IMG/VR virus record: IMGVR_UViG_3300007965_000002
Location: 1 to 64,000 of that record
DNA length: 64,000 bases
Strand: one strand, 5' to 3'
Source: a virus
Taxonomy: Duplodnaviria; Caudoviricetes
The notes beneath the pieces are model-generated. The model did no database searches. It saw only the letters and a program-made list of their open reading frames with translations, and was not told the DNA's origin. The translations under genes and the position numbers were made by a program. Shown here piece after piece: positions 6,951 through 32,455 of the stretch (position 1 is the first letter of the stretch; every line of letters begins with the position of its first letter).

Positions 6951-7010
6951 AAAAAGCACTTCCATTAGGGGTGCTTTTTACGTATAATAGCTTTATAGAA
7001 TTGAGAAAGG
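6951..7010 (+). promoter_or_regulatory. terminator-promoter-RBS cassette, copy 1
   Basis: AAAAAGCACTTCCATTAGGGGTGCTTTTTACGTATAATAGCTTTATAGAATTGAGAAAGG; TTCCAT-17-TATAAT lies inside a hairpin. Confidence 0.85.
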
Positions 7011-7019
7011 AAACAAATT

Positions 7020-7259
7020 ATGAATATTACTGATTATGCATGGTACAGGGCTTGGCGTAGACATGAAGCCTATGGAGTCCCAGTTACTCCAGAAGGAAAG
7101 CAAAGAGCCGATATTAGAGCCGAAGCCTTTTCTGAGGGATTTATTGCAGGTCAACGCTATGCAGCTACGTTGCTTGAACGGGAACATAGTAAAGCTAAGA
7201 AGTTACATAGTTTTTTCTTATTAGCATCAAAAATAATTAGAGATGGGATACAACGATGA
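7020..7259 (+). CDS. hypothetical protein
   Basis: First ORF after the cassette. Confidence 0.7.
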   Translation: MNITDYAWYRAWRRHEAYGVPVTPEGKQRADIRAEAFSEGFIAGQRYAATLLEREHSKAKKLHSFFLLASKIIRDGIQR

Positions 7260-8182
7260 AATTTAACTTAAAAGCAATACCAGCAGATTTAATTACAGTA
7301 AAACAAGTAGGTAAACTTAAAGTAGTAAAGTACGCACGAAAAGTATTTTATGATAACCTATGGGAAGTACATCCATTATTAAAGGAATGTAGAGGACTAG
7401 TACTAGACTTAGATAATAATGTTGTAGCCCATCCTTTCACTAAAGTATTTAACATTGGTGAAAATGGCACGGGATACCCAGAGTTCCCTTTCACACTAGT
7501 AGATAAGGTTAATGGATTCTTAGGTGTTATTACTCGATATGAGGGTAGAGATACATTCTCAACAACAGGTTCACTAGACTCACCATTTGTTACTATGTGG
7601 AGAGATTCTTTTGTTTGGCACTGGAAAGATAACAATGATACATTTGCTAACTCATTAATCTTAGATAAGTTACTAGATAGCTTTACTCTTATGTTTGAGG
7701 TATGCCACACAGATGACCCACACATAGTAAAAGAAGAACCTGGTATCTATTTAATTGGAGCTAGACGCAAAGATACTGGTACTATGATGTTAGAGTGTGA
7801 GCTAGATATTTTAGCTAGTAACTTTAAGTGGTATAGAAAAGAGCATCGTTTAGTTAAGAATAAAGAGGAACTGGATTCTTTAGTTAAGAACTGTAAGATG
7901 GAAGGGTTCATGGTTCGTGACTTCGATGGAAAGATAGTAGCTAAGGTTAAGTCTCCGCACTACCTAGGTACTAAGTTCATCGCTAGAGGTGGTTCTAAGA
8001 AAACTGCTCGTCTATGGGGAATGGAGGCAAGAGAAGTATTTAACTTAGGGCTAGAGGAGGAGTTCTTATCCGTTATCGAAAAGATTCGTGGTGCTTTTAG
8101 TCAAGAAGAATGGACAGCTTTAGGTGAGCAAGAACGAATTAGATTCGTAGAATTAGTTTTAACTCTAGTAGGAGAAGAATAA
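7256..8182 (+). CDS. RNA ligase (Rnl1-like)
   Basis: AHPFTKVFN, motif I DKVNGFL, III MFEV, IIIa YLIG, IV EGFMV, V KVKS. Confidence 0.85.
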   Translation: MKFNLKAIPADLITVKQVGKLKVVKYARKVFYDNLWEVHPLLKECRGLVLDLDNNVVAHPFTKVFNIGENGTGYPEFPFTLVDKVNGFLGVITRYEGRDTFSTTGSLDSPFVTMWRDSFVWHWKDNNDTFANSLILDKLLDSFTLMFEVCHTDDPHIVKEEPGIYLIGARRKDTGTMMLECELDILASNFKWYRKEHRLVKNKEELDSLVKNCKMEGFMVRDFDGKIVAKVKSPHYLGTKFIARGGSKKTARLWGMEAREVFNLGLEEEFLSVIEKIRGAFSQEEWTALGEQERIRFVELVLTLVGEE

Positions 8183-8397
8183 TGGTACATATTAATACAC
8201 AAGAGTTGCAAAAGTTAGTAGAAGAAGAACTTCTAGCAGTAGAAGAACTAGGTAATGATGTTGTTGGTACTAGTTTAATTGGTAGAGTTGGAAACTGCCA
8301 AATCCATTTAGTTGTTACTAACATGAAAGAAGAATTTATGGAAGATGAAGATAACGTAAACGTGGAAGATGGTTTAATTATAACAGAGGGTACGTAA
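8182..8397 (+). CDS. acidic hypothetical protein
   Basis: TAATG-coupled ORF. Confidence 0.6.
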   Translation: MVHINTQELQKLVEEELLAVEELGNDVVGTSLIGRVGNCQIHLVVTNMKEEFMEDEDNVNVEDGLIITEGT

Positions 8398-8798
8398 TGC
8401 CTACAGTAACTATATTACGTGGAGTATCCGGCTCAGGTAAGTCTACTATAGCAAATATGTTAACACAACTAGGTGCTGTAGTAGTATCTGCTGATAAATA
8501 CTTCATACAGCCATTTGGGGGTTATGTATTTGACCCTGCTAAACTAAAGCAAGCACATGAGTATTGCTACGATATGTTCCGTATGGAGTTGCTTTCAGGG
8601 AATGATGTGATAGTAGATAATACTAATACAACAGAAAAAGAAATAGCTAAGTATCTAGAGTTTGCTCAGGAACGTGGTTATAAAGTAACATGCCTAGTAG
8701 TAGAGAATAGACATGGTAGTGACTCAATACATGATGTACCAGAAGAAGTTCGTAAAAAACAAGCTATGCGCCTTGCACAATCAATTAAATTAATTTAG
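8397..8798 (+). CDS. P-loop kinase (polynucleotide-kinase-like, AAA_33)
   Basis: RGVSGSGKST, SAD, VIVDNTN. Confidence 0.8.
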   Translation: MPTVTILRGVSGSGKSTIANMLTQLGAVVVSADKYFIQPFGGYVFDPAKLKQAHEYCYDMFRMELLSGNDVIVDNTNTTEKEIAKYLEFAQERGYKVTCLVVENRHGSDSIHDVPEEVRKKQAMRLAQSIKLI

Positions 8799-8820
8799 TT
8801 AGTTCTAAGTAATAAAGTTA

Positions 8821-8880
8821 AAAAAGCACTTCCATTGGAGGTGCTTTTTGCGTATAATAGCTTTATAGAATTGAGAAAGG
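8821..8880 (+). promoter_or_regulatory. terminator-promoter-RBS cassette, copy 2
   Basis: AAAAAGCACTTCCATTGGAGGTGCTTTTTGCGTATAATAGCTTTATAGAATTGAGAAAGG. Confidence 0.85.
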
Positions 8881-8890
8881 GAACAAAGCA

Positions 8891-9322
8891 ATGAACCAAG
8901 TAGAATTAATATTACAAAGTGCTATAATCTTAAAAGACCAAGTAGATAATAACTTAATACATAAAAGCGAAGTAGAGACAGGTATATGTGGATTACTATC
9001 TATGATAGCTATTTCAAAATTCCAACAAGATACTAGCACTAGAAAGCTAAAAGAGTATTTTATTACTTGGGATAAGTATTCAGGTAACGAGTCATACCCA
9101 GTACCTTATGTAGGTGAGATATATAGATCAAAGTTAACCAGAGCTAATATAGATTATATAGCAAACGTAGTAGATACAGGGTTAAATAGTCCAGAATACT
9201 GTGCTAAACTAGCTTATGTTATATGTGATAATGTATGGATTGGTGAGTATGGCACATTACGCCGTGAACTTTTAGACCATATTATTAAGTCAGCTAAACA
9301 GGGGCTAGAATTATGCGATTAG
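8891..9322 (+). CDS. hypothetical protein, paralog family W-x-GEYG-x-LR
   Basis: Shares YF.TW..(F/Y)SG...YPVP and W.GEYG.LR..LL.H.I with 9313 and 19155. Confidence 0.75.
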   Translation: MNQVELILQSAIILKDQVDNNLIHKSEVETGICGLLSMIAISKFQQDTSTRKLKEYFITWDKYSGNESYPVPYVGEIYRSKLTRANIDYIANVVDTGLNSPEYCAKLAYVICDNVWIGEYGTLRRELLDHIIKSAKQGLELCD

Positions 9323-9624
9323 TACAGTACTTACAACAGATTATGGACTTAGCACTATTAAAAGATGAAGCTTTATCTATAAATGTAGGTATATGTTCAA
9401 ACCTATATTACCTATCTAATTTTAGATATGATGAAGATGATATTACTAAGTATTTCTACTCTTGGAAACATTTTTCAGGTGACTATAGGTACCCTGTGCC
9501 CTATCCGTCACTAGACCCTGATAAAGCATTTTTAACTATAGATAACCTATGGGTTGGTGAGTATGGTGAGTTACGTATTGATCTACTACAACACTTAATA
9601 GATTCGGTAGATAGATGGAGTTAA
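9313..9624 (+). CDS. hypothetical protein, paralog family W-x-GEYG-x-LR
   Basis: Same motifs as 8891. Confidence 0.75.
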   Translation: MRLVQYLQQIMDLALLKDEALSINVGICSNLYYLSNFRYDEDDITKYFYSWKHFSGDYRYPVPYPSLDPDKAFLTIDNLWVGEYGELRIDLLQHLIDSVDRWS

Positions 9625-9911
9625 GTCTATTATACCTACCGTTTAGCATTAGTACAGGCATTACTTTATCTGTATGTGCCTTAGTATTAATGCTTATAGA
9701 CCTATTAAATAATAAAATAACTAATGATGAAGAATTACGCATCGATTTAAGGTTTAAGTTTATAAGAGATGTGAATCTAAATTGTAGATTAAATAGCTTC
9801 TATAGCACTAGTAATAGTGTGAATAGAACAAAAGCGTATCACCAATCAATTTTACGAGAAATAATTATAAACAAGTTCAGTCTTGAATATTTAAAGGAAT
9901 TTAACAAATGA
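9615..9911 (+). CDS. membrane protein
   Basis: N-terminal hydrophobic helix. Confidence 0.6.
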   Translation: MELSLLYLPFSISTGITLSVCALVLMLIDLLNNKITNDEELRIDLRFKFIRDVNLNCRLNSFYSTSNSVNRTKAYHQSILREIIINKFSLEYLKEFNK

Positions 9912-10210
9912 AGAAATTATTATTAGTAGCAGTATTAGCCACACTAGTAACCCCTGCAGAAGCTAGAGTAGAAGCTTACGAAGCTATGGGTAACGTAGTA
10001 GAAGTAATGACATGTGTAGAAGCAGGTAAAACAAAAATCGAAGCATTATTCCATAATGGCCCACGATATAATCAATGGACTAAGATACGAGATATGCGTC
10101 AAGTATCGGCTATGGAGTTTGAATTTTTAGTAGCCAATAACTACAATGATAACTTTAGCTGGTATCGTGCTGATACCTTTAGTCAAATTCGCTGTGAGGG
10201 AGATAAGTAA
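9908..10210 (+). CDS. secreted hypothetical protein
   Basis: Signal peptide MKKLLLVAVLATLVTPAEA. Confidence 0.65.
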   Translation: MKKLLLVAVLATLVTPAEARVEAYEAMGNVVEVMTCVEAGKTKIEALFHNGPRYNQWTKIRDMRQVSAMEFEFLVANNYNDNFSWYRADTFSQIRCEGDK

Positions 10211-10818
10211 TGAATAAGATTTTATTAGGAGCTACAATTATATTGGCTAGCCTATTTACTACACCAGCACTAGCTTATACAGCTAATTGCTCTACACAGA
10301 TTAATAGTATTGATGGTCTAAGTGATACAGTTAAACAGACTATGATTGTCCAGTGTGAGCAGAATAAGTTAAAAGAAGCCACAACAACAAGCCCAAGTAT
10401 TAATACTTCTAGTATAGAAAATATGGATAAATGGTCTGAGATTTCTCTACGCTTTGCTAAAGCTATTGGTGTTGCTGCTAAAGAGTTTGGTGTAGCAGTA
10501 GATGACTTTTTAAAAACTGATGCAGGTAAGTTAACGGCAGTTTTCATTGGTTGGCAGGTATTTGGGGATGACCTAATTTCCTACTCTATTAGCTTAATAG
10601 TTCTATTAATAATGGTATTAGGTTGTAGAGCTTTCCGCAGACACCTATCATTAGAGGGTTATGAGGAACAAAAACGTACACTATTTGGTTTTGATATGGG
10701 TAGCAAGAAAGTACCTTTATACACTCCTTGGCGTTCAACTAATGAAAACGCCTCAGTAATGATTGTATTAAGTTATATAATCCAGTTAATTGTGTGTCTA
10801 ATTATTGTATTACACTAA
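10210..10818 (+). CDS. signal-peptide plus TM membrane protein
   Basis: Signal peptide ending ALA, two C-terminal TM segments. Confidence 0.7.
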   Translation: MNKILLGATIILASLFTTPALAYTANCSTQINSIDGLSDTVKQTMIVQCEQNKLKEATTTSPSINTSSIENMDKWSEISLRFAKAIGVAAKEFGVAVDDFLKTDAGKLTAVFIGWQVFGDDLISYSISLIVLLIMVLGCRAFRRHLSLEGYEEQKRTLFGFDMGSKKVPLYTPWRSTNENASVMIVLSYIIQLIVCLIIVLH

Positions 10819-13807: not shown

Positions 13808-14692
13808 ATGAACTTACAGAAAATGAATAGTATGGAACGTTTATCTCATGAAGTTATGCCTATGACCTTACAGGATATGTATAAGAGCTTTCACAAGTTC
13901 GCTACAAAACCGGGAGTAGCTTATAACTACTCTAATTTAACACCACGTCATGGTAAGCACTCTAATACCAAGTTAAATGGTGTAGTAACAGTAGGAGCAC
14001 AGTATTTAGTTAAGGAAATCTTAATTAAACTATTTAATCGTGACTTCTTTTGTCGTAATAAAGCTGAAATAATTGCCGAGTATAAGTACTTTATTGAAGG
14101 AGCATTATTTAAGCAGGTAGATACTACCCATATTGAAGCACTACATGACTTAGGGTATTTACCTTTACGTATCAAAGCTTTACCTGAGGGTACTTTTGTT
14201 CCTTATGGTGTACCTACGGTAACAATGCAAAATACAGTACCAGGTTTTGGTTGGCTAGTAGGTGCTTTAGAGGATGAATTTAGTGCTGAGATTTGGCCTA
14301 TTACAACTTCTGCTACTACAGCGTTTAACTACTTAATCACGTTTGAGAAGTCTCGTATTGCAAAAGAAATGATTCCATTCATGGGTCATGACTTTAGTTA
14401 TCGTGGACTACCTGGACATGTAGCAGCAGGTATGATTGGTTTCGGCCACCTAACCTCATTCTATGGTTCTGATACCACACCAGCAGCTATCTTTGCTTGG
14501 AAGTATTACGGAGCTGACGTAGGTGGAGCATTTGCTGGTCATGATGTAGAGCCTATATTTGCCTCTGTTAACGCTACTGAACACTCAGTAGCTACTAGTG
14601 CAATAACTACTATTGAGAATGAATTAAGAGATACAGGTAAATATAAAGGAAAAACTAATAATGAATGGATTAGAGAATTGGAAGGATATTAG
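13808..14692 (+). CDS. nadV: nicotinamide phosphoribosyltransferase family (Nampt/Namat), N-terminal fragment
   Basis: YSNLTPR, YLPLRIKALPEGT, HDFSYRG, FYGSDT, ATEHS; ends about 30 aa after EHS. Confidence 0.85.
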   Translation: MNLQKMNSMERLSHEVMPMTLQDMYKSFHKFATKPGVAYNYSNLTPRHGKHSNTKLNGVVTVGAQYLVKEILIKLFNRDFFCRNKAEIIAEYKYFIEGALFKQVDTTHIEALHDLGYLPLRIKALPEGTFVPYGVPTVTMQNTVPGFGWLVGALEDEFSAEIWPITTSATTAFNYLITFEKSRIAKEMIPFMGHDFSYRGLPGHVAAGMIGFGHLTSFYGSDTTPAAIFAWKYYGADVGGAFAGHDVEPIFASVNATEHSVATSAITTIENELRDTGKYKGKTNNEWIRELEGY

Positions 14693-21715: not shown

Positions 21716-22539
21716 TGATTAATGATTATTTAGCAGGTGGTTGGTCAGTAGAGCCAGTCAACATTATACTTGATAAAGACAAATTCGCTAGTATTAGAGA
21801 ATTTGTTGATATAGCAAAAACTCATGCAATATATATTATGTTGAGTGAAGAAGATAGGATTAAGTTGCTTTCAGGGGATGGGGATGATATTAAAATATAT
21901 CAGCTACAGCAAACAGTAGCACCACTTTGGAACTCAAAAGGTGTGTATAGTCAAGGTAAGAATAGTTCTAAACCTAACTATGATATTGTAGCATACAAAG
22001 CACAAGTTGGAACATTTAAACGTGTATTTAATGTAGAGTACTTAAAGCAATCTGATGCGGCTTTACTTCTAGACCCTAAACATGTATATACAGATGGTAA
22101 ACTAAGACCTTATATAAAGAAGTTATGTGTTGTTCACACAGCTAATAACAACTTTGTAATAACAACACATCAGATAGTTAGAGATTATGCAGAGAATGCA
22201 GAAGCGGATACTAAGCTAGATGAAATACCAAAGTTCACTCCTTTTATACTAAATACAGATAATAAGTTCTTAAAGTATTTTAGTTGGTCTTGTCCTGTGG
22301 GATATACTAAACTAATGGAGGATATAAAGAACGCTCTTCCATATATTGATAAGTATGATTCATCTATAATTATAGACGATACAGACTTCCCCGAAGAAGC
22401 AACTAATAATACCACAGGGTTAGACCGTATCTCGGAGATTACTATTAACCGTAATCTAGTGAAGATAGGATATATAATCTCTACTGAGATACCCGTTCTT
22501 ATTGCAAAAACATGTATTGACAAAAATATGGAATCCTAG
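21715..22539 (+). CDS. hypothetical protein (274 aa)
   Basis: TAATG coupling suggests ATG 21715 rather than the track start 21682. Confidence 0.65.
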   Translation: MINDYLAGGWSVEPVNIILDKDKFASIREFVDIAKTHAIYIMLSEEDRIKLLSGDGDDIKIYQLQQTVAPLWNSKGVYSQGKNSSKPNYDIVAYKAQVGTFKRVFNVEYLKQSDAALLLDPKHVYTDGKLRPYIKKLCVVHTANNNFVITTHQIVRDYAENAEADTKLDEIPKFTPFILNTDNKFLKYFSWSCPVGYTKLMEDIKNALPYIDKYDSSIIIDDTDFPEEATNNTTGLDRISEITINRNLVKIGYIISTEIPVLIAKTCIDKNMES

Positions 22540-22545
22540 TAAAAT
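22517..22545 (+). promoter_or_regulatory. sigma70 promoter firing into the non-coding/terminal-repeat region
   Basis: TTGACA-17-TAAAAT. Confidence 0.65.
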
Positions 22546-22621
22546 ATATACTTAGCAGAAAAGCGAGACTTCTGCAATCACTAAACCCCCGAACTAGAGA
22601 GGGGTGAAGGAGGTGGGGTGA

Positions 22622-22762
22622 ATGAACCGACGACAGTCGACTCGAGTGATTCGCCCCAACCTACCAAACACTCTCTATCTAATACAAAAGAAAAGAGCCA
22701 AGTCCAAGCTTGGACTTAAATACGCTTTATGGCTCTTTACGTCTAAAAATAGACTTACCTAA
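22622..22762 (+). CDS. candidate 46-aa basic peptide (or part of a structured ncRNA)
   Basis: AAGGAGGT 7 nt before ATG; MNRRQSTRVIRPNL...KNRLT. Confidence 0.35.
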   Translation: MNRRQSTRVIRPNLPNTLYLIQKKRAKSKLGLKYALWLFTSKNRLT

Positions 22763-22866
22763 AAAATTTACAGCAACATTGAAAGCTTCCGATTCCGCTA
22801 AGAATTAGAAGCCCTTTTCAAAAAACAGACTACCTTAAAAAACAGACTTGCCTAAAAACAGACTAC
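22745..22866 (+). repeat. short direct repeats AAAAA(C/T)AGACT(T)(A/G)CCT
   Basis: Copies at about 22745, 22820, 22837 and 22855. Confidence 0.7.
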
Positions 22867-22924
22867 TCTTATTTTGAACATCATTTCCTGAAAAAGCAAC
22901 TCCAAACTTCCGCTTCACCCACTT

Positions 22925-23075
22925 CTAGCAATTACTTATAGATCTTGCACTAATATAGGTTTTGCACTTATACACCACAATTCCCCCTTGTTCTACAATT
23001 CTAGCAATTCCCCCTTATTCTACAATTCTAGCGATTCCCTTTGTTACATAATTCTAGCTCAATTGCTTTTTAGGG
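22925..23075 (+). repeat. tandem repeats (CT)ACAATTCTAGC(A/G)ATTCCCC
   Basis: 3-4 imperfect copies. Confidence 0.7.
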
Positions 23076-23350
23076 ATTACTCTAATTAGCTTCGGGTACC
23101 GCTTTGTTGCTTTCCGGGATAAAAATGAGCCTGGTATGCAATTTTGAGATAGTCCAAATCTCCGATTAGCTCTATTTATCCCTGAAAAGCAACCCAACGA
23201 ACCTAGTCCGCCTCGAATATCTCCCAAAAAGTCCAAATAACTCCAAATATCCCTGAAATAGCACTTTCTAGCTAGTCCAGCGAGTCACAGTGGTGAAGCC
23301 ACTGAATCCCGCTAGTCCCGGTGCACGTAATGTGAAATTCTGCTTTACAG

Positions 23351-23480
23351 ATCGGTTTCGCACTGGCGCAGGGTAGATTTTTATTTTTTGACCAAAATTT
23401 ATTTAGACTACACGTTCGGATTCGCACTTAGTCGGTTTCGCACTAGTAACCCTCGGTTTTGCACTTATCGGTTTCGCACT
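23351..23480 (+). repeat. five copies of TCGG(T/A)TT(C/T)GCACT
   Basis: At 23351, 23415, 23431, 23452 and 23467; a related copy at 22955. Confidence 0.8.
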
Positions 23481-23520
23481 AAAGCGCCGAGCTGCGCTCA
23501 CCGCCACGTGCATTCACGCT

Positions 23521-23600
23521 GGACGTCTAGCCATCCAGACTTCTAGCCGTCTAGCCATCTGGACGTCCAGCCATCTGGCCATCTAGACGTCTAGACGTCC
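23521..23600. promoter_or_regulatory. array of 10 tandem in-phase met boxes (MetJ operator-like)
   Basis: GGACGTCT AGCCATCC AGACTTCT AGCCGTCT AGCCATCT GGACGTCC AGCCATCT GGCCATCT AGACGTCT AGACGTCC; consensus AGACGTCT. Confidence 0.85.
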
Positions 23601-23609
23601 GCAAAGTTG

Positions 23610-23656
23610 AATACGAATCATTCTCATTCCCACCTTGAATGCGAATCATTCTCATT
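23610..23656. promoter_or_regulatory. two Fur boxes
   Basis: AATACGAATCATTCTCATT (23610-23628) and AATGCGAATCATTCTCATT (23638-23656). Confidence 0.7.
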
Positions 23657-23672
23657 TCGATTACGATTAGCA

Positions 23673-23730
23673 GTTTACGTAAACGTCAATATGCGTTTTT
23701 TCTAATGTTTACCTTTACGTAAACGTCAAC
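23673..23730. promoter_or_regulatory. three LiuR-type boxes
   Basis: GTTTACGTAAACGTCAAT (23673), GTTTACCTTTACGTAAAC (23707), CTTTACGTAAACGTCAAC (23713) versus sTTkACGTwwACGTmAAs. Confidence 0.65.
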
Positions 23731-23772
23731 TAAGTTATACAAAGTTATCCACACTGTTATACATTATCCACA

Positions 23773-23788
23773 TGGCACGTTAATTGCA
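23773..23788 (+). promoter_or_regulatory. sigma54 -24/-12 box
   Basis: TGGCACG-TTAA-TTGCA. Confidence 0.75.
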
Positions 23789-23845
23789 TAATCCCTGTAA
23801 AGCAACCTAACGAGTTATCCACAACTTATTAACAGGGTTATACCA

Positions 23846-23861
23846 CTGTATGTTTATACAG
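23846..23861. promoter_or_regulatory. LexA (SOS) box
   Basis: CTGT-ATGTTTAT-ACAG within the palindrome TACCACTGTATGTTTATACAGTGGTA. Confidence 0.75.
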
Positions 23862-24043
23862 TGGTAGTAACATGTGGATAAGTGTAAACGTCCATTTTAA
23901 GGGGTCTAAATGGCTCTGTAAGTTGCTTTCAGGGATGGGCTATATATTAGGTGGTACTAGATTCTATAGCCTGGAGGGATTATATTAGATTTACCTGTTA
24001 TAGCGTGTAAACGGCGAACTACACGCGCAAGCGTGTAGTCCTA

Positions 24044-24097
24044 TGCAAGAATCATGCCAACTATTTTTCGACGCGGTGAATGAGAATAGTTCTCATT
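24044..24097 (-). promoter_or_regulatory. composite module: sigma54 box, GC motif, Fur box
   Basis: Reverse-complement TTGGCATGATTCTTGCA (24044-24060); GACGCGGTG; AATGAGAATAGTTCTCATT (24079-24097). Confidence 0.75.
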
Positions 24098-24107
24098 TGA
24101 CTTTATG

Positions 24108-24398
24108 CTAACACTGGAAATAAATTCTGTCTACTCCTTCTAGTATATTCATTTCTTCTAATATACCATAGCCTATTGGGGCTAATTTCTTAAAGTCCTG
24201 TACTGTAAATTGTGCTACTTCACAATAAGATTCGGCCTCTATATTGTCTAGCTCTATAGTAGATTCTAGAAGTAAATCATGCCATTTATCCCTAGGGTAC
24301 GCGCATAAAAACATACCCAAATTTATATCTAAGATAGTTAATTTTTCAACACTAGAATTTTTAATACTTCCTAGTCGTGCGTTATTAGAATAGCTCAT
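24108..24398 (-). CDS. pre-early hypothetical protein
   Basis: Operonic ORF with GGAG RBS. Confidence 0.65.
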   Translation of the reverse strand: MSYSNNARLGSIKNSSVEKLTILDINLGMFLCAYPRDKWHDLLLESTIELDNIEAESYCEVAQFTVQDFKKLAPIGYGILEEMNILEGVDRIYFQC

Positions 24399-24592
24399 TT
24401 TAAAAGCTCCTTAAGTTTAGGTAAATTAGCACGCCCTAATTTATTTCGGGCGTGATCTACGTTGGCACGTTGTCTAGTGATGCGCTTTTCAATATCAGAT
24501 TTTTCATCTAATATGCTGGCTAGCTTGCTGCAAGCAAATTCGTATTGTTGCAGCAAGTATAAATAGCGCTTTTCTTTATTTGATAGGCTCAT
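24395..24592 (-). CDS. pre-early coiled-coil protein
   Basis: Coupled ORF. Confidence 0.65.
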   Translation of the reverse strand: MSLSNKEKRYLYLLQQYEFACSKLASILDEKSDIEKRITRQRANVDHARNKLGRANLPKLKELLK

Positions 24593-25032
24593 TATCCAAA
24601 CTCCACTAATGCTAGCAATTCACATTCTGCGCCCATTTCATCCTCGTTATACTGTACAGCTTCTAGGTGGTTGAAAATATCCTCGTCAAATGTTTCCTGA
24701 TAGCATTCGGTATAATCGATTGAGCAGTTTGCAACCTGTTCGCGGTTAAATTCTGCTCTAGCTTTTTCGCTGTAACCTACTCGAGTTTTTGCCTTGGCTA
24801 GTGTTTGCTCGGTAAGCCAAGTACCAATTGAATTAGAGTAATCCATTGCAACGCTTTTAGTAGATACGAAAATCGGAGCAGGGGAAGCCATAGATCTAAC
24901 TAGTCCAGTGTTTAGTTGTACTGAATGGCCGATAACAATAGTTCTATTATTATCGTGAAACGATTTGGCTGAAAAGTCTATTTTATCACCACAAAGAGAT
25001 ACAGATTGGGTAGCGCGGTTTGAGTTTTTCAT
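24592..25032 (-). CDS. pre-early hypothetical protein
   Basis: Follows the 50-nt leader repeat and a promoter. Confidence 0.7.
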   Translation of the reverse strand: MKNSNRATQSVSLCGDKIDFSAKSFHDNNRTIVIGHSVQLNTGLVRSMASPAPIFVSTKSVAMDYSNSIGTWLTEQTLAKAKTRVGYSEKARAEFNREQVANCSIDYTECYQETFDEDIFNHLEAVQYNEDEMGAECELLALVEFG

Positions 25033-25079
25033 AATTTTGAATCCTAGCTTAGTGGGTTGAAATTATTTTCTTACCCGAC
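25030..25079 (-). repeat. 50-nt identical leader/RBS repeat (second copy 25913-25962)
   Basis: CATAATTTTGAATCCTAGCTTAGTGGGTTGAAATTATTTTCTTACCCGAC occurs twice. Confidence 0.9.
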
Positions 25080-25085
25080 CAAATA

Positions 25086-25113
25086 AGTATATCACACTGA
25101 CAACTGGTAGCAA
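25086..25113 (-). promoter_or_regulatory. pre-early promoter
   Basis: TTGCTA-16-TATACT with extended -10 TG. Confidence 0.6.
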
Positions 25114-25123
25114 GTAATCTTTT

Positions 25124-25179
25124 AGCCGTCTAGACGTCCAAACCCAAAATCGGCGCAGCGAATGAGAATCATTCTCATT
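25124..25179. promoter_or_regulatory. met-box pair plus perfect Fur box
   Basis: AGCCGTCT AGACGTCC (25124-25139); AATGAGAATCATTCTCATT (25161-25179). Confidence 0.75.
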
Positions 25180-25206
25180 TAGCTTTGCGTTAACAGTGAA
25201 CTTCTA

Positions 25207-25458
25207 TTATTCAAATTCCACTAATGCTAGTAGTTTGACAATTTCATTAACACTTTGTGAACAATTGTACTTATTAGCATCTGCTAATATACCCGCTAAA
25301 TCCTCCAAATCGTAAATTCGATAATGATAACAAAACTCATAATTTTTAACTTCTGGCTTTGTTACCGAAATGTTACAATAACAATCAATTTCGTTATCAC
25401 AGCCATGTAAGTATAGTTCAACCATTACACCCCCAGAAAAGCAACAAAGCGATAACAA
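25207..25458 (-). CDS. pre-early hypothetical protein
   Basis: ORF; the true start may be the internal MVELYLHG. Confidence 0.55.
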   Translation of the reverse strand: MLSLCCFSGGVMVELYLHGCDNEIDCYCNISVTKPEVKNYEFCYHYRIYDLEDLAGILADANKYNCSQSVNEIVKLLALVEFE

Positions 25459-25603
25459 TCACCACGCCGCAACAATTAAGTAACTCAACAGCCATACGTT
25501 CTGATAATCCTAGTTTTAACGCTACCATATCAATTAAACAATTCATTAAAATGCCCCCGCAAAAAGTGCTGCCATGATGAACGTAAACATAAGCTTTGAC
25601 CAA
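25418..25603 (-). CDS. small membrane/lipoprotein-like ORF
   Basis: Hydrophobic C-terminus; start uncertain. Confidence 0.4.
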   Translation of the reverse strand: MVKAYVYVHHGSTFCGGILMNCLIDMVALKLGLSERMAVELLNCCGVVIVIALLLFWGCNG

Positions 25604-25734
25604 CCAGCCTTAAAGTCGTTTGTACCTATTGAACGAGCTATACCGATTACGCCACACAAAGCCGCTAAAATAGTTAATATTAATACTAGCATGATTATCA
25701 CCTCTAGGCTAGCCCGTAGGCTAGCCTTATCCAA
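25546..25734 (-). CDS. small membrane protein
   Basis: Two TM helices; probable start MLVLIL after GAGGTG. Confidence 0.55.
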   Translation of the reverse strand: MDKASLRASLEVIIMLVLILTILAALCGVIGIARSIGTNDFKAGWSKLMFTFIMAALFAGAF

Positions 25735-25735
25735 G

Positions 25736-25915
25736 TTAAGTAGTTGATTTAGTGGTTAATGGCACCATTTGCATTTGTGAAAATATAGCTGCTAATTCGT
25801 CACGCTCAAGTGTAACAACTACCCCCGAGTCTGTTTGCAATTTAATCACCTGCTGACCTTTCAGTGTTCTGTGTTGAACCATGTAAACGACTTCTTGCTT
25901 GCCTGAAATAAACAT
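25736..25915 (-). CDS. pre-early hypothetical protein (59 aa, not in ORF track)
   Basis: MFISGKQEVVYMVQHRTLKG...; starts at the 50-nt leader repeat. Confidence 0.65.
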   Translation of the reverse strand: MFISGKQEVVYMVQHRTLKGQQVIKLQTDSGVVVTLERDELAAIFSQMQMVPLTTKSTT

Positions 25916-25968
25916 AATTTTGAATCCTAGCTTAGTGGGTTGAAATTATTTTCTTACCCGACAAAGAC

Positions 25969-25996
25969 AGTATAGCACACTGATAAATCATATCAA
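25969..25996 (-). promoter_or_regulatory. pre-early promoter
   Basis: TTGATA-16-TATACT with extended -10 TG. Confidence 0.6.
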
Positions 25997-26249
25997 CTAT
26001 TTATTTGGTCTAAAATGAAAAACATTGTTCTTACCAGGAACCAACCAGGGTTACCGGCAGGTAAACCTGCCCAGCCAGCCAGCCTAGGCAAATATACCTA
26101 TTTCTTGCAAAAGTCGCTTAAATCGCTGTTTTGGCGGCTTCCTGTCGGTGGATAATGTATAAGGGCTGTTTCAATGATTTTTTTATCCACAGGTTATTAA
26201 CAGGTTATACATTATCAACAGGGTTTATAGGCCACCAGCAACATTTTGA

Positions 26250-26266
26250 CAATGGTAAGACCAATT
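26250..26266. promoter_or_regulatory. PdhR-type operator
   Basis: CAATGGTAAGACCAATT versus AATTGGTAAGACCAATT (15/17). Confidence 0.6.
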
Positions 26267-26348
26267 GACCAAGTTATCCACAAAATTATTTTGTTTAATG
26301 TATAACTCACCTGTTAATAAGTCTAGACTTATCCACAAGTACCACACA

Positions 26349-26447
26349 TGCAAGAATCATGCCAAAAAATTTTCGGCGCGGCGAAATGAGAATGATTCTC
26401 ATTTGCATTCAACCCAGTGAGCTACCAGGATGAGAATGATTATCATT
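26349..26447 (-). promoter_or_regulatory. composite module copy 2: sigma54 box, GC motif, two Fur boxes
   Basis: TGCAAGAATCATGCCAA (26349-26365); GGCGCGGCG; AATGAGAATGATTCTCATT (26385-26403); GATGAGAATGATTATCATT (26429-26447). Confidence 0.75.
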
Positions 26448-26470
26448 TGCATATGCAAGTTTGCTAATAC

Positions 26471-26636
26471 AAGTTGGCATGGTTTTTGTTGCGAACTATT
26501 ATCATATGCGTTTTTGCTAATATACCTATATGCAAGTTTGCTAATATTAACATTAGATTCTACTAATATAAGTTGGCATGGTTTTTGTTGCGAACTATTA
26601 TCAACAAGAATCGTGCCAAGTCAAGAATCGTGCCAT
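26471..26636. repeat. 34-bp direct repeat and four sigma54-like boxes
   Basis: AAGTTGGCATGGTTTTTGTTGCGAACTATTATCA at 26471 and 26570; reverse TGGCACGATTCTTG at 26603 and 26620. Confidence 0.7.
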
Positions 26637-27178
26637 AACAGTAAAATCTAATATATAGCTCTAGAACGCGCTATAACGTGATTTGCCGGTACTATTATTT
26701 TTTGAAGCCCTAGTATCAAAACCTTTTTAAAATGCCACCAGCAGCCAAAGCGTGACTTATCCACAAAGTTATCCACAAGCAATGGGGTTGACATTCTCAA
26801 AAGGCCATTTCTATCCACAATTTGCTAGTTATACATAAAAAATCTGTGGATAAGTGAATAACTAGCATGTTTTACAAATGTCAAATTTATTTGAAATAAT
26901 GCTTAACAAAGTTATCCCCACCTGGTAGAGCCTGGACGTGCCCCTTGTGGATAACTATTACCAAATAGGCCGATTCCTTGGATTCTAGGAAAGTTATCCA
27001 CAAAATTACAAACCAGGAAAATTATCTGTGGATAAGTGCCCTGTGGATAAGTACCAAATAGCACCAGATTCAACAATCTATTTGTTTTGATATACGACTG
27101 ACCAAAAAATTAAAGTCGCTTAAATCGCTGTTTTGATGCCTTTACGGGCATATTAGTTATATCTAATATATAACCATG

Positions 27179-27195
27179 TTGGCATGGTTATTGCT
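27179..27195 (+). promoter_or_regulatory. sigma54 -24/-12 box
   Basis: TTGGCATGGTTATTGCT. Confidence 0.7.
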
Positions 27196-27395
27196 ACGCG
27201 CTCGCACCTGTTTCTTTTATAAACTAGCCCAGGCTTATGCATTCTAGTTATAACTTATATTAACTAGTTATTAGACGGTATTTTTTAAACGTGGTCTAAT
27301 AGCTTCATTGAAACGGGACATCATTTCAATGTTATTTTTACCCTGTGATGTGAAGCGGCTTTGATTAGCGCGAGGTACTAGGAAAAAATAAAAGC

Positions 27396-27470
27396 TTGAC
27401 AATAAAAACGGTTCCATGCAATAATAGCTCCACTGATTAGGCAGCATCCTAAACGTTCTTTAACAATCTG
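27396..27470 (+). promoter_or_regulatory. pre-early promoter with rrn-like boxB hairpin and boxA
   Basis: A-tract UP element, TTGACA-18-AATAAT, TTAGG-CAGCAT-CCTAA hairpin, CGTTCTTTAACA. Confidence 0.6.
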
Positions 27471-27591
27471 GTAACAAAAAAGTTTCACTTGCCTAGTTAA
27501 AGTTATCATTAATCACATTATTTATTAGTAGTGTGATTATTGACTAACTTTTAGTCAATACCACTAACTAAAATCATTGGAGATTTTAAAA

Positions 27592-27978
27592 ATGGCAAAG
27601 GCACCTAAAACCCAAGAAACGAAAAAAGCTACCGTATTGCGTAAAAATCACGGTACTAAGGGCAATTTTCCCCCTAAAAAATCTTGGGTAACATTAAACG
27701 GAAGGATTAAAACCGAAGTCGTTTTATGTTCTGGAAATTTCGAACCAATGCGAACGGGCGACAAAGACAAAGACGCCGAAGCAATGCGACTTTATCGCGA
27801 AGCATACCGCGCCGATTTGCGAACGCTTGAACGCCAAAAACCTGTTAAGCCTAAAACATTATTCGACCTTTATGTGTTGAACGGTGGCAAGGCAAGACAC
27901 CCGAAACAGCTAGCAGGCCAAATTGTGCAAATGCTCGGTTATTCGCATAATTCAAGCGCTGAAATTCGCATTATTTAG
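27592..27978 (+). CDS. basic pre-early protein
   Basis: GGAG RBS before ATG 27592. Confidence 0.7.
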   Translation: MAKAPKTQETKKATVLRKNHGTKGNFPPKKSWVTLNGRIKTEVVLCSGNFEPMRTGDKDKDAEAMRLYREAYRADLRTLERQKPVKPKTLFDLYVLNGGKARHPKQLAGQIVQMLGYSHNSSAEIRII

Positions 27979-28277: not shown

Positions 28278-28745
28278 ATGACTACAACTAAAACACCAGC
28301 TAAAAAATTCGCTTGGAATGATGAAACCTGTTCACAAGCTGCCGCGCTTTATGCTGAATTACTAGGTGCAACTTACAACCCTGTTACTAAAACGCTGGAT
28401 TTTGAAGTTGGTTCGAAGCCTACTGTCGATTTACACACGGTAGCAAACAGCGAAAAAGCTTTAAATGCAATCGCTGTTAAAATTGGGGCGAAATCTGGTC
28501 GTGCTGTTCGCGGTAAGTTATCAAAAGAGGGCGTTTATATTACCCTTGAAGCCGTCCCAACTCCAAGCACCTCGACACGTATCTCAAAAGGTCAGTACGT
28601 GCGTTCAATTGCCGAGGGTTTAGGCGTTGACCTTGAAACAATCCAAACGCTTGATAAGGCCAATTTAGAAGCGTTGGAAACCTTAACAGCGAAATTAAAC
28701 GGAGTGTTGAAAGCTGCCGAAATGCCAGAAATCACTGTTAAGTAA
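28278..28745 (+). CDS. A2: T5 A2-like DNA-binding / second-step-transfer protein
   Basis: FAWNDE..., IA..IGAKS..AVRGKLS, K.QYVR.IA resemble T5 A2; synteny with A1 and dmp. Confidence 0.8.
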   Translation: MTTTKTPAKKFAWNDETCSQAAALYAELLGATYNPVTKTLDFEVGSKPTVDLHTVANSEKALNAIAVKIGAKSGRAVRGKLSKEGVYITLEAVPTPSTSTRISKGQYVRSIAEGLGVDLETIQTLDKANLEALETLTAKLNGVLKAAEMPEITVK

Positions 28746-28782
28746 TTGTTAACTGGGCGTTAATTCTAGCGCCCTTTAATTT

Positions 28783-28798
28783 CCCGTAATGACGGAGT
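28783..28798 (+). promoter_or_regulatory. repeated hairpin-RBS leader CCCGTAATGACGGAGT (also at 29263 and 31335)
   Basis: Three identical 16-mers, each 6-8 nt before an ATG. Confidence 0.75.
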
Positions 28799-28806
28799 AT
28801 TAAAAA

Positions 28807-29244
28807 ATGTTTTCACCCAAACTCAACTTATCTGATTTAGTCGCAGAGCATAAAGGCCATATTGCAGCCGTATTAGATACCCAGTCCGAAATTGAGCGCT
28901 TAAAGGAACTAGCATTTCAGCAAAAAGAAGCGGCTAAACTTGACCGTGATACGTTAACGCAATTAATACGCCAATTGTCTAACGAGCGTCACCCAAGCAA
29001 CAACGGCATGTTGCAAGAAGCAAATGTTAGCGCTTTGCTTGGCGCAATCAATATTAACTTTACTGCTTATAACAGCTCAAATGATGAAGTTAGACTAGCG
29101 TATGATAAGGCCGTTAACGTCTACAATGACGCAATGGTAAAGCTATTTAAAGCAAAAATAGCATATATCGAAAGTTGTGCTGTTTATGGTAGTATGGCAG
29201 GCTTATCGGTTAACTGGCAAGCGCTAGAAAAACGTAGCAAGTAA
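28807..29244 (+). CDS. pre-early helical hypothetical protein
   Basis: ORF after the leader repeat. Confidence 0.7.
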   Translation: MFSPKLNLSDLVAEHKGHIAAVLDTQSEIERLKELAFQQKEAAKLDRDTLTQLIRQLSNERHPSNNGMLQEANVSALLGAININFTAYNSSNDEVRLAYDKAVNVYNDAMVKLFKAKIAYIESCAVYGSMAGLSVNWQALEKRSK

Positions 29245-29284
29245 GCAACCCCTTTAAATTTTCCCGTAATGACGGAGTAACAAA

Positions 29285-30958
29285 ATGAAACAAGTTAAAA
29301 ACCTATCTGTAGCGACACAAGCGGCATTGTTAAATCTTGCTCAAAATGAGTTTAATTATTATGGCAAGCGTACCCGTTCAACTCGCCTAACTTGTGCTGA
29401 ACAAATGCTTAGAGAATGTGAGTTAATCGGAACGGTAGAAAGTGCCGATTTAGTGGAATGGCTGGCAGAAAATAAACCAGCACCAGCACCAGCCAAAGAA
29501 AAAGCCGAAAAAGTTAACGCTCCGTTAGTTCCTACTTTCAACGGCGAGTTAATGCATCGTGACGATATTATGCAAAGCTTACCTGATGGCGTTTATATTA
29601 TTTCTAGTGCGCAAAATAATACATTGCCGCACCCTACACTAAAATCATTAAAAACTTTAGCGGGTGTTTTAGAGGCTCAACTTTTATTGATGCCTATTAA
29701 ATACACAACAACGCTTGATAGCTTGGAACGCAAAACGCCAACTTATGACGATAGTGTTACACCTTATCTAGTAGAGAATAATATCTGGCTAGGTGGTCGT
29801 GGCTGTGTTCGCTTGGCAGTTGGGGCAAATATCCTGCCAACCGCTAAGCAGCCAATTAACACGGCAGCAAACTTGAATAAAGGCGAGTCGTTAACCGTTG
29901 TTGCCTCACCTAAAAAGCAACTCAAAACACTAGCCCGTTCAAAAGATGGTGCACATCGTTGGGTATATACAACGGGTTCATGTACACAACGCCATTACAC
30001 TGACACCAGAGCAGGCGAGGAGGGATGTGATTCACATACGTTCGGGGCATTAGTTGTCACTGTTAATGAGGGTTATGTCGAGCATCAAGAAATTGTGGCA
30101 GATGAAAGCGGGGCATTTTATTATGATATGGCCTGTTATGATGGTTTTAACATAACAGAGATTCACAAGACACCAGCACTAGTTTTAGGTGACTTACATT
30201 GTGAAAAGATGTGCGAAAACTCGCTTGTAAGAGCATTAGCCCAAATTGATATTTATCAGCCCTCACAAGTTATTTTACACGATACACTAGATTTTATGTC
30301 TAGAAATCATCACAATCGAAATAGCGGTTTGTTTCTATATACAATGGGTTCCCGCTCTGTTTTAGATGATTTAAATGATGCTGTTCATGTTGTAAATAGA
30401 ATTGCTGCCCAATGCGATAGCGTTTTTATCGTTTGCAGTAATCACGACTTAGCCCTTGATAGCTGGCTTGATGACCCAAAATACAACGCTGATAAAGACC
30501 CTATCAACGCTAAAACGTATTATTTCTTGAAACATGCTGTTTTAGAAGCAATTGACAGCGGGGACGAACTAGACGCACCACGCTTAGCAATGTTTGATTT
30601 AGCAATCACTAAACTAGTCGAGCAGTTAGCGGAACCATTAGCCAGTAATGTTATATTTGGCCGTCTAGATATGAGCCATAAGATTAACGGATTCGAATGT
30701 GGTTCTCATGGGCATTTAGGTAACAGCGGCGCACGTGGTTCGCAACGCTCGTTTAAAGCTTATCAGATGCCTTGGATTAGCGGCCATACACATTCACCCG
30801 CCCGTGATGGTAATGTGTTAACCGTGGGCGTTACTGGTTCGCTGGAAATGGGCTACAATAAAGGTGGTACTATGTGGGATAGAGCAAACGCCTTAATCCT
30901 GCCAAATGATACAGCCGTATTAATTCCCACGTATGCAATAGGAGAGCAGCAAGCATAA
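29285..30958 (+). CDS. A1: T5 A1-like DNase / DNA-transfer protein
   Basis: 557 aa; IISSAQNNT, TTGSCT..HY, LGDLH, SNHD, HGH.G..GARG, GHTHSP, GVTGSL..GYNKG; synteny. Confidence 0.88.
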   Translation: MKQVKNLSVATQAALLNLAQNEFNYYGKRTRSTRLTCAEQMLRECELIGTVESADLVEWLAENKPAPAPAKEKAEKVNAPLVPTFNGELMHRDDIMQSLPDGVYIISSAQNNTLPHPTLKSLKTLAGVLEAQLLLMPIKYTTTLDSLERKTPTYDDSVTPYLVENNIWLGGRGCVRLAVGANILPTAKQPINTAANLNKGESLTVVASPKKQLKTLARSKDGAHRWVYTTGSCTQRHYTDTRAGEEGCDSHTFGALVVTVNEGYVEHQEIVADESGAFYYDMACYDGFNITEIHKTPALVLGDLHCEKMCENSLVRALAQIDIYQPSQVILHDTLDFMSRNHHNRNSGLFLYTMGSRSVLDDLNDAVHVVNRIAAQCDSVFIVCSNHDLALDSWLDDPKYNADKDPINAKTYYFLKHAVLEAIDSGDELDAPRLAMFDLAITKLVEQLAEPLASNVIFGRLDMSHKINGFECGSHGHLGNSGARGSQRSFKAYQMPWISGHTHSPARDGNVLTVGVTGSLEMGYNKGGTMWDRANALILPNDTAVLIPTYAIGEQQA

Positions 30959-31008
30959 TGTTAGATAGAGATTATAACGGCTACCCCATTAAGTAACTTA
31001 ACCCGCTT

Positions 31009-31024
31009 TGTTCCACGTGGAACA
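31009..31024. promoter_or_regulatory. parS site 1
   Basis: TGTTCCACGTGGAACA within the 24-bp perfect palindrome 31005-31028. Confidence 0.8.
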
Positions 31025-31055
31025 AAGCAACCCCCCTTTTTACGGAGTTACCCAA

Positions 31056-31292
31056 ATGTCACAAGTTAATATCACGTTTACCAAAGACACCCCAGAATCA
31101 TTCGAACCTGAAACAGGGCAATTTTTTCAGGTTAATGAATGCCATACAAACGAATTGATTTTAATAACTGACGACACCCATGTGTGCGTTATTTTATCTA
31201 GTGGTCAATTAATGGACGTTGAAAACCTAGACGAAAAGCTTACCCGCGATAACTTAGTTATTGATTTAAAAATCGAAGCAACCATTAAATAA
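31056..31292 (+). CDS. pre-early hypothetical protein (78 aa)
   Basis: GGAG RBS before ATG 31056; the track start 31008 is unlikely. Confidence 0.65.
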   Translation: MSQVNITFTKDTPESFEPETGQFFQVNECHTNELILITDDTHVCVILSSGQLMDVENLDEKLTRDNLVIDLKIEATIK

Positions 31293-31303
31293 TTAACCCG
31301 CTT

Positions 31304-31319
31304 TGTTCCACGTGGAACA
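31304..31319. promoter_or_regulatory. parS site 2
   Basis: Identical palindrome at 31300-31323. Confidence 0.8.
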
Positions 31320-31358
31320 AAGCAACCCTTTTTCCCCGTAATGACGGAGTATTAAAAA

Positions 31359-31982
31359 ATGAGCCAATTTAAGCCAAAGCATATTACAATTTTTGACCTA
31401 GACAGAACCGTTATAGATAGCGACCATCGCACCCCCTACGATAATGATGGCAACCTAGATTTAGCAGCATATCGCGACAACCAAACACACGCTAACATTA
31501 TGAATGACACACTTTTACCCTTAGCTAAACTTATGCAATCGCGCATAGCCCAAGGGGAAACCGTGGTAATCGTTACTGCAAGGCGCATGATTAAGAGTGA
31601 TTACATATACCTAAGAAAGAACGGATTAAAAACCGCGTATACTTGCAGTCGTGACCAATTATTCAAGCGCTTCGATAATGAAACCGCATCAATGATTTAT
31701 AATCTTAATGATGCAAACTACAAATGGCATTGGTTTAACCATTTACAGAACCGTTTTCCTCTTGCCTCGTTTACTGTATACGATGACCATAAAGGCGTAT
31801 TAAAGGTGGCGCAATCGTTTGGCTTTCAAGTGTACGATGCAATTAGTGTTAATAGTATGCTGGCTGATTTTCTTGATATGGGATTTGAAGAAGGATTTGC
31901 GCAAGGATTAGACGCGGGTTATCTGGACGGGGAAATGAGCGCTATTCATCAGGTAATTGAATTTGACAGCAGAGCAGCCTAA
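31359..31982 (+). CDS. dmp: deoxynucleoside-5'-monophosphatase (HAD)
   Basis: IFDLDRT, VTAR, YDDH HAD motifs; last pre-early gene, as in T5. Confidence 0.8.
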   Translation: MSQFKPKHITIFDLDRTVIDSDHRTPYDNDGNLDLAAYRDNQTHANIMNDTLLPLAKLMQSRIAQGETVVIVTARRMIKSDYIYLRKNGLKTAYTCSRDQLFKRFDNETASMIYNLNDANYKWHWFNHLQNRFPLASFTVYDDHKGVLKVAQSFGFQVYDAISVNSMLADFLDMGFEEGFAQGLDAGYLDGEMSAIHQVIEFDSRAA

Positions 31983-32103
31983 GCGCAATGCTGGTAGTAT
32001 ATGCATCAATGCTAATATAGTGCAATATGTTAGCATTGCATTATCCCCCTGTTAGAGCATTAGCCCTTACTAATATATAGTAAGGGCATTTTTATTATGT
32101 ACA

Positions 32104-32208
32104 AATGATAATCAATATCAAATGAGAATCATTCGCATATGATAAGCCAGGAACAAATGATAATCATTCGCATTTAGGGTGGGGGCGGTAATGAGACTCA
32201 TTCTCATT
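32104..32208. promoter_or_regulatory. four Fur boxes
   Basis: At 32104, 32121, 32156 and 32190 (e.g. AATGATAATCATTCGCATT, AATGAGACTCATTCTCATT). Confidence 0.7.
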
Positions 32209-32305
32209 TGACCCAGGCCCCACCCCTTTTCATGTAACTACTATGAAAAATTAGAGGAAATGGCTTAGGCCGCCTCTAAGAGCAACTAAGCGGTTCCCTG
32301 AAAGC

Positions 32306-32455
32306 AACTATGCATAATTCCCCAACTATGCATAATTCCCATAACTATACATAATTCCCATAACTATGCATAATTCCCCTAACTCCCTATACTCCCTTTA
32401 CTTCCCAACTTCCTATACTCCCTTTACTTCCTATACTCCCCGCACCCCTCCACTC
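32306..32455 (+). repeat. short tandem repeats near the inferred genome end
   Basis: AACTAT(G/A)CATAATTCCC x4, then CCTATACTCCCTTTACTT-like repeats. Confidence 0.8.

Follow-up and report, generated by a model that had tools for sequence, protein, structure and literature searches.

Met-box-like units in an unbroken ten-unit array in the putative injection-stop region of a T5-like phage

Phage T5 stops transferring its DNA at about 8%, before any phage protein is made; the stop at 7.9% is observed in vivo without protein synthesis, whereas FhuA proteoliposomes receive the whole genome (Davison, bioRxiv 10.1101/866236). A host factor is therefore expected to be involved. The injection stop signal region has been proposed to be Repeat Region 3 of the left terminal repeat, and the preprint discusses DnaA alone as a host factor, with neither MetJ nor 8-bp units being considered (Davison, bioRxiv 10.1101/866236).

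The operators of the methionine repressor MetJ, such as those of metJ/metB, metF and metA, are situated at met-gene promoters and consist of 8-bp AGACGTCT units in strict head-to-tail register. Long arrays built of 7-bp units are also known as binding sites of ribbon-helix-helix proteins, omega among them. Indeed, the omega heptads and the ParR/ParG centromeres are also long contiguous series of short units, each unit receiving one dimer of the MetJ/Arc fold, although these units are 7 bp or longer and have different sequences, and the binder is encoded adjacent to the array. MetJ is confined to the Enterobacterales, Pasteurellales, Vibrionales, Aeromonadales and Alteromonadales, where its motif is conserved (PMC3228920).

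The locus described here is located within a window of 64,000 nucleotides, corresponding to positions 1 to 64,000 of the IMG/VR virus record IMGVR_UViG_3300007965_000002, which itself comprises 89,861 bases and is estimated to be 77% complete. The window belongs to a T5-like phage, as indicated by a block of pre-early genes that marks T5-type first-step-transfer DNA:

28278–31982, plus strand: pre-early genes A2-like, A1 and dmp
28278–28745, plus strand: A2-like DNA-binding protein, matching the A2-type DNA-binding family
29285–30958, plus strand: homologue of the A1 DNA-transfer protein, 49% identical to A1 of Vibrio T5-like phages (E = 5e-158)
31359–31982, plus strand: homologue of the dmp 5'-deoxyribonucleotidase, within the pre-early block

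The window is syntenic with Vibrio phage Pontus through the array described below, DnaA boxes, small minus-strand ORFs, A2, A1, dmp and terminase, and for the pre-early block the synteny also extends to T5. The major capsid protein shares 60–62% identity with its counterparts in Demerecviridae that infect Vibrio and Aeromonas. The host orders of these nearest relatives carry MetJ and, judging from the relatives, the host of the window phage may do so as well. A megablast search of 22000–26000 against phage records returned no close relatives, and an IMG/VR scan with the single protein A1 found nothing; the 22000–26000 region thus appears to have distant relatives only. The orientation of the window is reversed with respect to the standard T5 map, with the left genome end presumed to lie near 32.1–32.6 kb; DNA entry would proceed toward lower coordinates and the array would be reached after ~8.6–9.1 kb. 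The terminal repeat is collapsed in the assembly, in which nicks are also invisible. Dense tandem repeats with periods of 17, 19, 9 and 26 bp fill 32101–32440 and separate dmp from the genes on the terminase side; the left genome end and the repeat edge are expected here. Elsewhere in the window, a tail-fibre-like ORF of 1334 aa (56674–60678) contains many 9-bp periodic repeats at 56934–57885 and an 81-bp tandem duplication at 58108–58258.

The main feature of the locus lies at lower window coordinates than this block, within a 1.6-kb gene-free stretch that is presumed to be part of the phage terminal repeat:

23521–23600, no strand assigned: main array of ten in-register met-box-like units (87.4 bits in total, 8.7 bits per box)

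Read directly from the sequence, the array comprises ten contiguous 8-bp units arranged head-to-tail with zero indels, and Tandem Repeats Finder reports a period of 8, 9.5 copies and 0% indels, in agreement with the exact ten-unit array of the original prediction. The units match AGACGTCT at 7, 5, 7, 7, 6, 6, 6, 5, 8 and 7 of their eight positions (64 of 80 in sum), such that a perfect met box is seen once and the earlier wording, that the array is built around this sequence, is fitting. Nine different sequences occur among the ten units, which argues against a fresh slippage repeat, and the strongest boxes are found at both ends, the final two reaching 12.6 and 10.3 bits. Within the whole 89.9-kb record, runs of at least three in-register boxes with at least five of eight matches are restricted to the main array, and Markov shuffles yield 0.03 runs of at least four boxes per genome. 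No ORF of note crosses the array in a coding-potential check, Rfam gives no matches in 22400–27700, and a promoter and terminator scan of the region reveals no excess over shuffles. The absence of a nearby met gene, as previously claimed, is borne out, with the neighbours being the pre-early genes A1, A2-like and dmp.

The array was scored with the metbox information matrix and thresholds of Augustus and Spicer, which derive from 832 half-metboxes of gammaproteobacterial met regulons (PMC3228920) and are therefore independent of phages. The box threshold of 3.145 bits is one quarter of the consensus score, and the site threshold of 12.58 bits is the consensus score itself. All ten boxes pass, with 5.9–12.6 bits each, and together they place 87.4 bits in exact 8-bp register, compared with the 12.58 bits required of a site. 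When scored alike, seven E. coli operators (MG1655) reach 15–31 bits, or 5.0–9.5 bits per box, with 2–4 passing boxes, consistent with the 2–5 boxes that had been attributed to natural operators; the main array therefore scores ~3 times as high as the best of them and, with ten boxes (and 8–29 in its relatives), is also longer. Only 23 of the 65,536 octamers reach 8.7 bits, and a random 8-mer repeat reaches this value in its best rotation with a probability of 0.0024. In a substitution-pattern test, none of 5000 random draws with equal change counts scores as high as the array of the window, and P<0.03 is obtained in nine of the ten phages tested. The observed units thus outscore matched random changes, which suggests that they vary as natural MetJ sites vary. 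Indeed, the box-to-box variation is of the same kind as that seen within natural MetJ operators, and some phage units have exact natural counterparts, including one of the metK boxes, which recurs in the main array. At the sequence level, the proposed reading as a MetJ operator is thus sustained, since every box passes a published matrix and the departures from consensus are natural-like.

The array is nevertheless distinct from natural operators in several respects. Position 3 is enriched in C, which is present in 44% of distinct phage units versus ~10% of natural half-boxes, and T is nearly absent from position 4. Most array-bearing phages preserve the right half-site more faithfully than the left, an asymmetry that a symmetric dimer would not be expected to produce. 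In contrast to MetJ operators, which reside at met-gene promoters, the array is found in non-coding terminal-repeat DNA of a phage, and it has no met-regulon promoter to overlap or repress.

Blastn against 5,426 complete E. coli genomes returned no comparable array. In a degenerate five-unit scan, simple 8-bp repeats that pass the matrix were present in many non-MetJ bacteria among the matches listed, and passing the matrix is thus no evidence of MetJ in the case of a simple repeat. Among the matches listed, these bacterial look-alikes are monotonous, with one or two units, whereas the phage arrays are heterogeneous; we note that such degenerate scans, of IMG/VR and of bacterial genomes, are unreliable as a guide to taxonomic distribution, monotonous simple repeats from many taxa making up most of the matches listed in both. 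A Kofleriaceae MAG carries five near-consensus met boxes at ~2261–2300, with a mean of 11.1 bits and four distinct units. This MAG belongs to a phylum without MetJ, and short met-like arrays can arise elsewhere.

The surroundings of the array were compared with the corresponding region of T5. In the same orientation, T5 9150–10450 presents the DRD repeats, GCGCAG at the 7.9% nick, Fur-like palindromes, paired DnaA boxes and palindrome D. The window presents a similar succession of DRD repeats, nick-like motif, MetJ-like array, Fur-like palindromes, sigma54 look-alike, DnaA boxes and LexA-like palindrome, with the main array located between the nick-like motif and the Fur-like palindromes:

23353–23479, plus strand: five DRD-like direct repeats, counterparts of T5 direct repeat D
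23492–23497, minus strand: GCGCAG nick-like motif, counterpart of the motif at the annotated 7.9% major nick of T5
23609–23657, no strand assigned: two Fur-box-like palindromes, directly after the main array
23674–23689 and 23714–23729, no strand assigned: two copies of a 16-bp near-palindrome, between the Fur-like palindromes and the DnaA boxes
23745–23881, no strand assigned: block of four perfect DnaA boxes, matches to TTATCCACA at 23745, 23764, 23815 and 23873
23773–23788, no strand assigned: sigma54 -24/-12 look-alike, a motif match
23846–23861, no strand assigned: LexA-box-like palindrome, counterpart of T5 palindrome D

The order of the modules was confirmed by a motif scan of six phages, and the succession of DnaA boxes and then palindrome D is found in the window and, in identical order, in five relatives. 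Thus, from its place relative to dmp, A1 and A2 and from the order of its modules, the array interval appears to be the counterpart of Repeat Region 3 in T5, which has been put forward as the injection stop signal. GCGCAG precedes the array by 0–25 bp in PR1, AhSzw-1, Pontus and JSF10; in the window it lies on the strand opposite to that of the T5 motif, and its homology to the nick motif is uncertain. T5 palindrome D (AY587007, ~9330–9349) and its counterparts in five relatives are of the LexA (SOS) box type, CTGT-N8-ACAG, and the sigma54 look-alike at 23773 has counterparts at the matching place in AhSzw-1, Pontus and JSF10.

Matches to the consensus sites of host proteins are strongly enriched. 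Perfect DnaA boxes (TTATCCACA) occur 15 times in the window, compared with 0.62 expected, and all except one are found in non-coding blocks of the presumed terminal repeat, at 23.7–23.9 kb and 26.2–27.05 kb (23745–27050). Fur-like 7-1-7 motifs with up to two mismatches number 6 versus 0.79 expected and cluster in the same non-coding blocks as the DnaA boxes; Fur-like palindromes are positioned at 25163, 26387, 26431, 32106 and 32158, as well as at 23609–23657 and 24078–24100. Four exact sigma54 -24/-12 look-alikes (23773–23788, 24044–24059, 26349–26364 and 27180–27195), compared with 0.04 expected, all fall within non-coding parts of the repeat. In T5, direct repeat C and palindromes E–I can also be read as the Fur-like 7-1-7 motif. 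Despite these similarities, T5 Repeat Region 3 differs from the array-bearing phages in that a met-box array is absent from the homologous interval, where four Fur-like boxes are present instead, compared with none or one in the array-bearing phages. This reciprocity, seen in a small sample of phages that are not phylogenetically independent, suggests that one slot may be filled by arrays for either of two cooperative repressors, MetJ or Fur.

Besides the main array, a single further site in the 89.9-kb record passes the published metbox criteria, and it is present exactly where a second pair of boxes had been predicted:

25124–25139, no strand assigned: second site, a pair of met-box-like units (19.8 bits) flanked on either side by a minus-strand pre-early ORF
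25153–25177, plus strand: GCGCAG nick-like motif (25153–25158) and Fur-like 7-1-7 palindrome (25163–25177), adjoining the second site

Both units of the pair match AGACGTCT at seven of eight positions. The met-like, nick-like and Fur-like modules that accompany the main array thus recur here, with their order changed. Taken alone, the pair is moderately unusual, an equally good site being present in 3 of 150 shuffled genomes, and it is absent as a conserved feature from Pontus, AhSzq-1, PR1 and T5.

Relatives of the array were identified by blastn with the array as query, and six T5-like phages carry one:

AhSzw-1, host genus Aeromonas: 16 units
AhSzq-1, host genus Aeromonas: 29 units
PR1, host genus Providencia: 9 units
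Pontus, host genus Vibrio: 17 units
JSF10, host genus Vibrio: 20 units
PVo5, host genus Vibrio: 8 units

In each case the array maintains a single unbroken register and occupies the matching place in the module order. Conservation in relatives, which had been put forward as a check, is therefore seen as arrays of 8–29 units at the same position in T5-like phages of Aeromonas, Providencia and Vibrio, and the array is conserved across phage genera in unit grammar as well as in position. The PR1 array (9620–9691) lies inside the annotated terminal repeat (1–10461), ~0.8 kb from its inner edge, such that the right-hand copy is ~0.8 kb from the genome end. The units of PVo5 are inverted relative to their flanks, an arrangement that a symmetric binder would tolerate. 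The array is absent from T5 and from its relatives of Klebsiella and Salmonella, and blastn with array queries gave zero matches in A1-bearing phages of Flavobacterium, Caulobacter and Rhizobium.

Arrays of this kind are also found in the non-coding DNA of phages unrelated to T5, namely Asteriusvirus, Mimasvirus, PGT2 and D164. The Asteriusvirus jumbo coliphages have 19 units, ~0.8 kb inside a 21.5-kb direct terminal repeat. The positions of the arrays within the stretches compared are as follows:

vB_Ec-M-J: 1140–1291
121Q: 1124–1275
Mimasvirus CBB: 706–825, 15–16 units (CBB/XbC2)
Mimasvirus XbC2: 701–828, 16 units
Autographivirus PGT2: 1493–1564, 9 units, 38–109 bp from the record start
Vibrio phage D164 (46 kb): 1119–1278, 20 units

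These arrays share the 8-bp unit family, comprise 9–20 units in one register and are non-coding, whereas the virion types and gene sets of their phages are unrelated to those of the T5-like phages and the flanking motifs differ. Indeed, the window phage and D164 have only protease-like and helicase-like matches in common. The arrays of the unrelated phages are mostly located 0.04–0.9 kb from an annotated terminal-repeat edge or a record end. No DnaA/LexA cassette was seen in the jumbo-phage leader that was read; the jumbo-phage leaders contain many copies of the CAGTACTG motif.

With the exception of the Xanthomonas phage XbC2, the hosts of the array-bearing phages all belong to MetJ-bearing orders. 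XbC2 has a good 16-unit array although the Xanthomonadales are without MetJ, and it is a counter-example unless the host assignment or the history of the phage explains the array. In IMG/VR, the exact two-box pattern was matched at nine loci, mostly coding or chance matches, and two of the nine are intergenic arrays of 5–6 boxes on unrelated contigs. These two arrays (14584–14631 and 435–474 of their contigs) are directly upstream of genes and look like ordinary MetJ-type operators on phage genes.

We consider it reasonably probable that host MetJ, together with SAM, coats the array cooperatively, the array being part of a cassette of sites for host proteins that marks the boundary of the first-step-transfer DNA. 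The array would then represent a super-sized MetJ-type operator, in which each 8-bp unit would take one SAM-loaded dimer of host MetJ. Neighbouring dimers would touch, such that the ten in-phase boxes would become covered by a continuous protein sheath of ~80 bp, probably nucleated at the near-consensus boxes at both ends of the array; the cooperative protein helix formed on plasmid ribbon-helix-helix arrays provides a working analogy for such a coating of 10–29 units. Rather than regulating a met gene, the array would serve as one module of a conserved cassette of host sites at the terminal repeat's inner edge, where the MetJ complex may help to retain or tag the DNA during the injection pause. 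Alternatively, the complex may act at the same site in the right-hand copy of the repeat, which lies within 1 kb of the genome end. The dependence on SAM would tie binding to the metabolic state of the host. Because the flanking motifs are strongly enriched consensus sites of host proteins, a host factor is favoured for the array as well.

A role of the MetJ-coated segment in the pause is plausible, and the injection roadblock of the original prediction gains from the position of the array, which fits the T5 stop region and adjoins the nick-like motif; the blocking activity itself would be a further step beyond this placement. Two objections apply to a role in the pause. Proteins bound to DNA that has already entered the cell would not necessarily prevent the rest from following and, by T5 shear mapping, the array may remain in the envelope or tail during the pause. 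Moreover, the location of the arrays near repeat edges in unrelated phages is just as consistent with a function in the processing of the repeat, or with one at the genome end. A much broader proposal, that several unrelated families of gammaproteobacterial phages with terminal repeats use a SAM-loaded MetJ filament, formed on 8–29 boxes at one repeat edge, for genome delivery, with a T5-like stop component that is interchangeable with Fur and gated by SAM, seems to us quite unlikely in its entirety.

The array could also be bound by a protein of the phage itself, such as a ribbon-helix-helix protein of the omega, ParG or ParR type, A2 or a virion protein, in which case the likeness to met boxes would reflect coincidence or mimicry. 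The coverage of long arrays by omega provides a precedent, and the unit dialect, the unequal conservation of the half-sites and the retention of the array by XbC2 in a host order without MetJ would all suit such a binder, whose gene could reside in the missing part of the record; in addition, Pfam often misses small proteins that bind DNA. At BLAST and Pfam sensitivity, however, the MetJ, RHH_1 and Arc families have no match in the 89.9-kb record (77% complete), the ten pre-early ORFs have no Pfam match and, unlike the plasmid systems, no adjacently encoded binder was detected. The only pre-early proteins common to the window, Pontus, AhSzq-1, PR1 and T5 are A1, A2 and dmp and, since T5 has all three yet lacks the array, no pre-early protein tracks it. 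The near absence of proteins shared with D164, despite its 20 units, and the agreement of the unit variation with a bacterial MetJ matrix also argue against a phage-encoded binder, which we regard as possible but doubtful. A further explanation is that the array is a cis signal for processing of the terminal repeat, be it concatemer cutting, duplication, nicking or packaging, with or without a host architectural protein. Every lineage examined has its array 0.04–0.9 kb from a repeat edge or record end, in the T5-like phages it adjoins the nick-like motif, and T7 likewise has short repeat arrays near its repeat edges. Yet a single 8-bp specificity would not be expected to be common to the terminases and nickases of unrelated phages, T5 shows the same organisation of repeat and nick without carrying the array, and the units of PVo5 are inverted relative to their flanks, so that we judge a processing signal to be unlikely.

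The original prediction had also named a decoy that could derepress methionine and SAM synthesis by the host; in this reading, replicating genomes would titrate MetJ. The matrix score leads us to expect a high total affinity, and two copies per genome would be multiplied by the many genomes present late in infection. However, the host DNA is broken down by T5 in the first minutes after infection (Davison, bioRxiv 10.1101/866236), which in a T5-type phage would leave derepression without a template, and one entering array offers only ~ten dimer sites; for these reasons a decoy is very unlikely, and it would also leave unexplained the conserved placement in the stop region beside sites for other host factors. 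Explanations that do not invoke a protein, namely a neutral tandem repeat or a structural hairpin or cruciform, can draw on the single strand of the array, which folds better than shuffles (z = -4.4), as well as on the simple matrix-passing repeats of non-MetJ bacteria among the matches listed. The predicted fold is diffuse, with a minimum-energy structure frequency of 0.02, and the folding advantage follows trivially from the palindromic nature of the units. Moreover, the register is perfect even though nine of ten units are distinct, the position is conserved across genera, the unit variation is constrained, and the bacterial counterparts among the matches listed have the monotony already described, all of which makes a non-protein origin hardly likely. 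Tandem binding of TrpR at 8-bp spacing is established, the CTAG cores of the trp operator being 8 bp apart, and CTAG or close variants do recur every 8 bp at the unit junctions of the array. Nevertheless, ACTAGT is absent from the array, the junctions being TCTAG with A or C as the next base or, in many cases, CCAG or CTGG, and the MetJ matrix accounts for all eight positions, such that binding by TrpR appears extremely improbable.

Although the two-step injection of T5 has been known for decades, DnaA is the only host component to have been proposed for the 8% stop, and the searchable literature contains no paper linking MetJ or met boxes to T5-like or other phages. If the MetJ reading is correct, the array places a specific and easily tested host protein at the point homologous to the T5 stop in relatives infecting Vibrio, Aeromonas and Providencia. 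The window contributes a distant uncultured member of the family and the exact placement of the array beside a nick-like motif, together with the reciprocal pattern of Fur-like and met-like boxes relative to T5 and the substitution-pattern test. Several of the array-bearing relatives, coliphages included, are in culture, and thus a direct test is possible. Should MetJ indeed bind, phages would be using a metabolic repressor of their hosts for a purpose beyond gene regulation.
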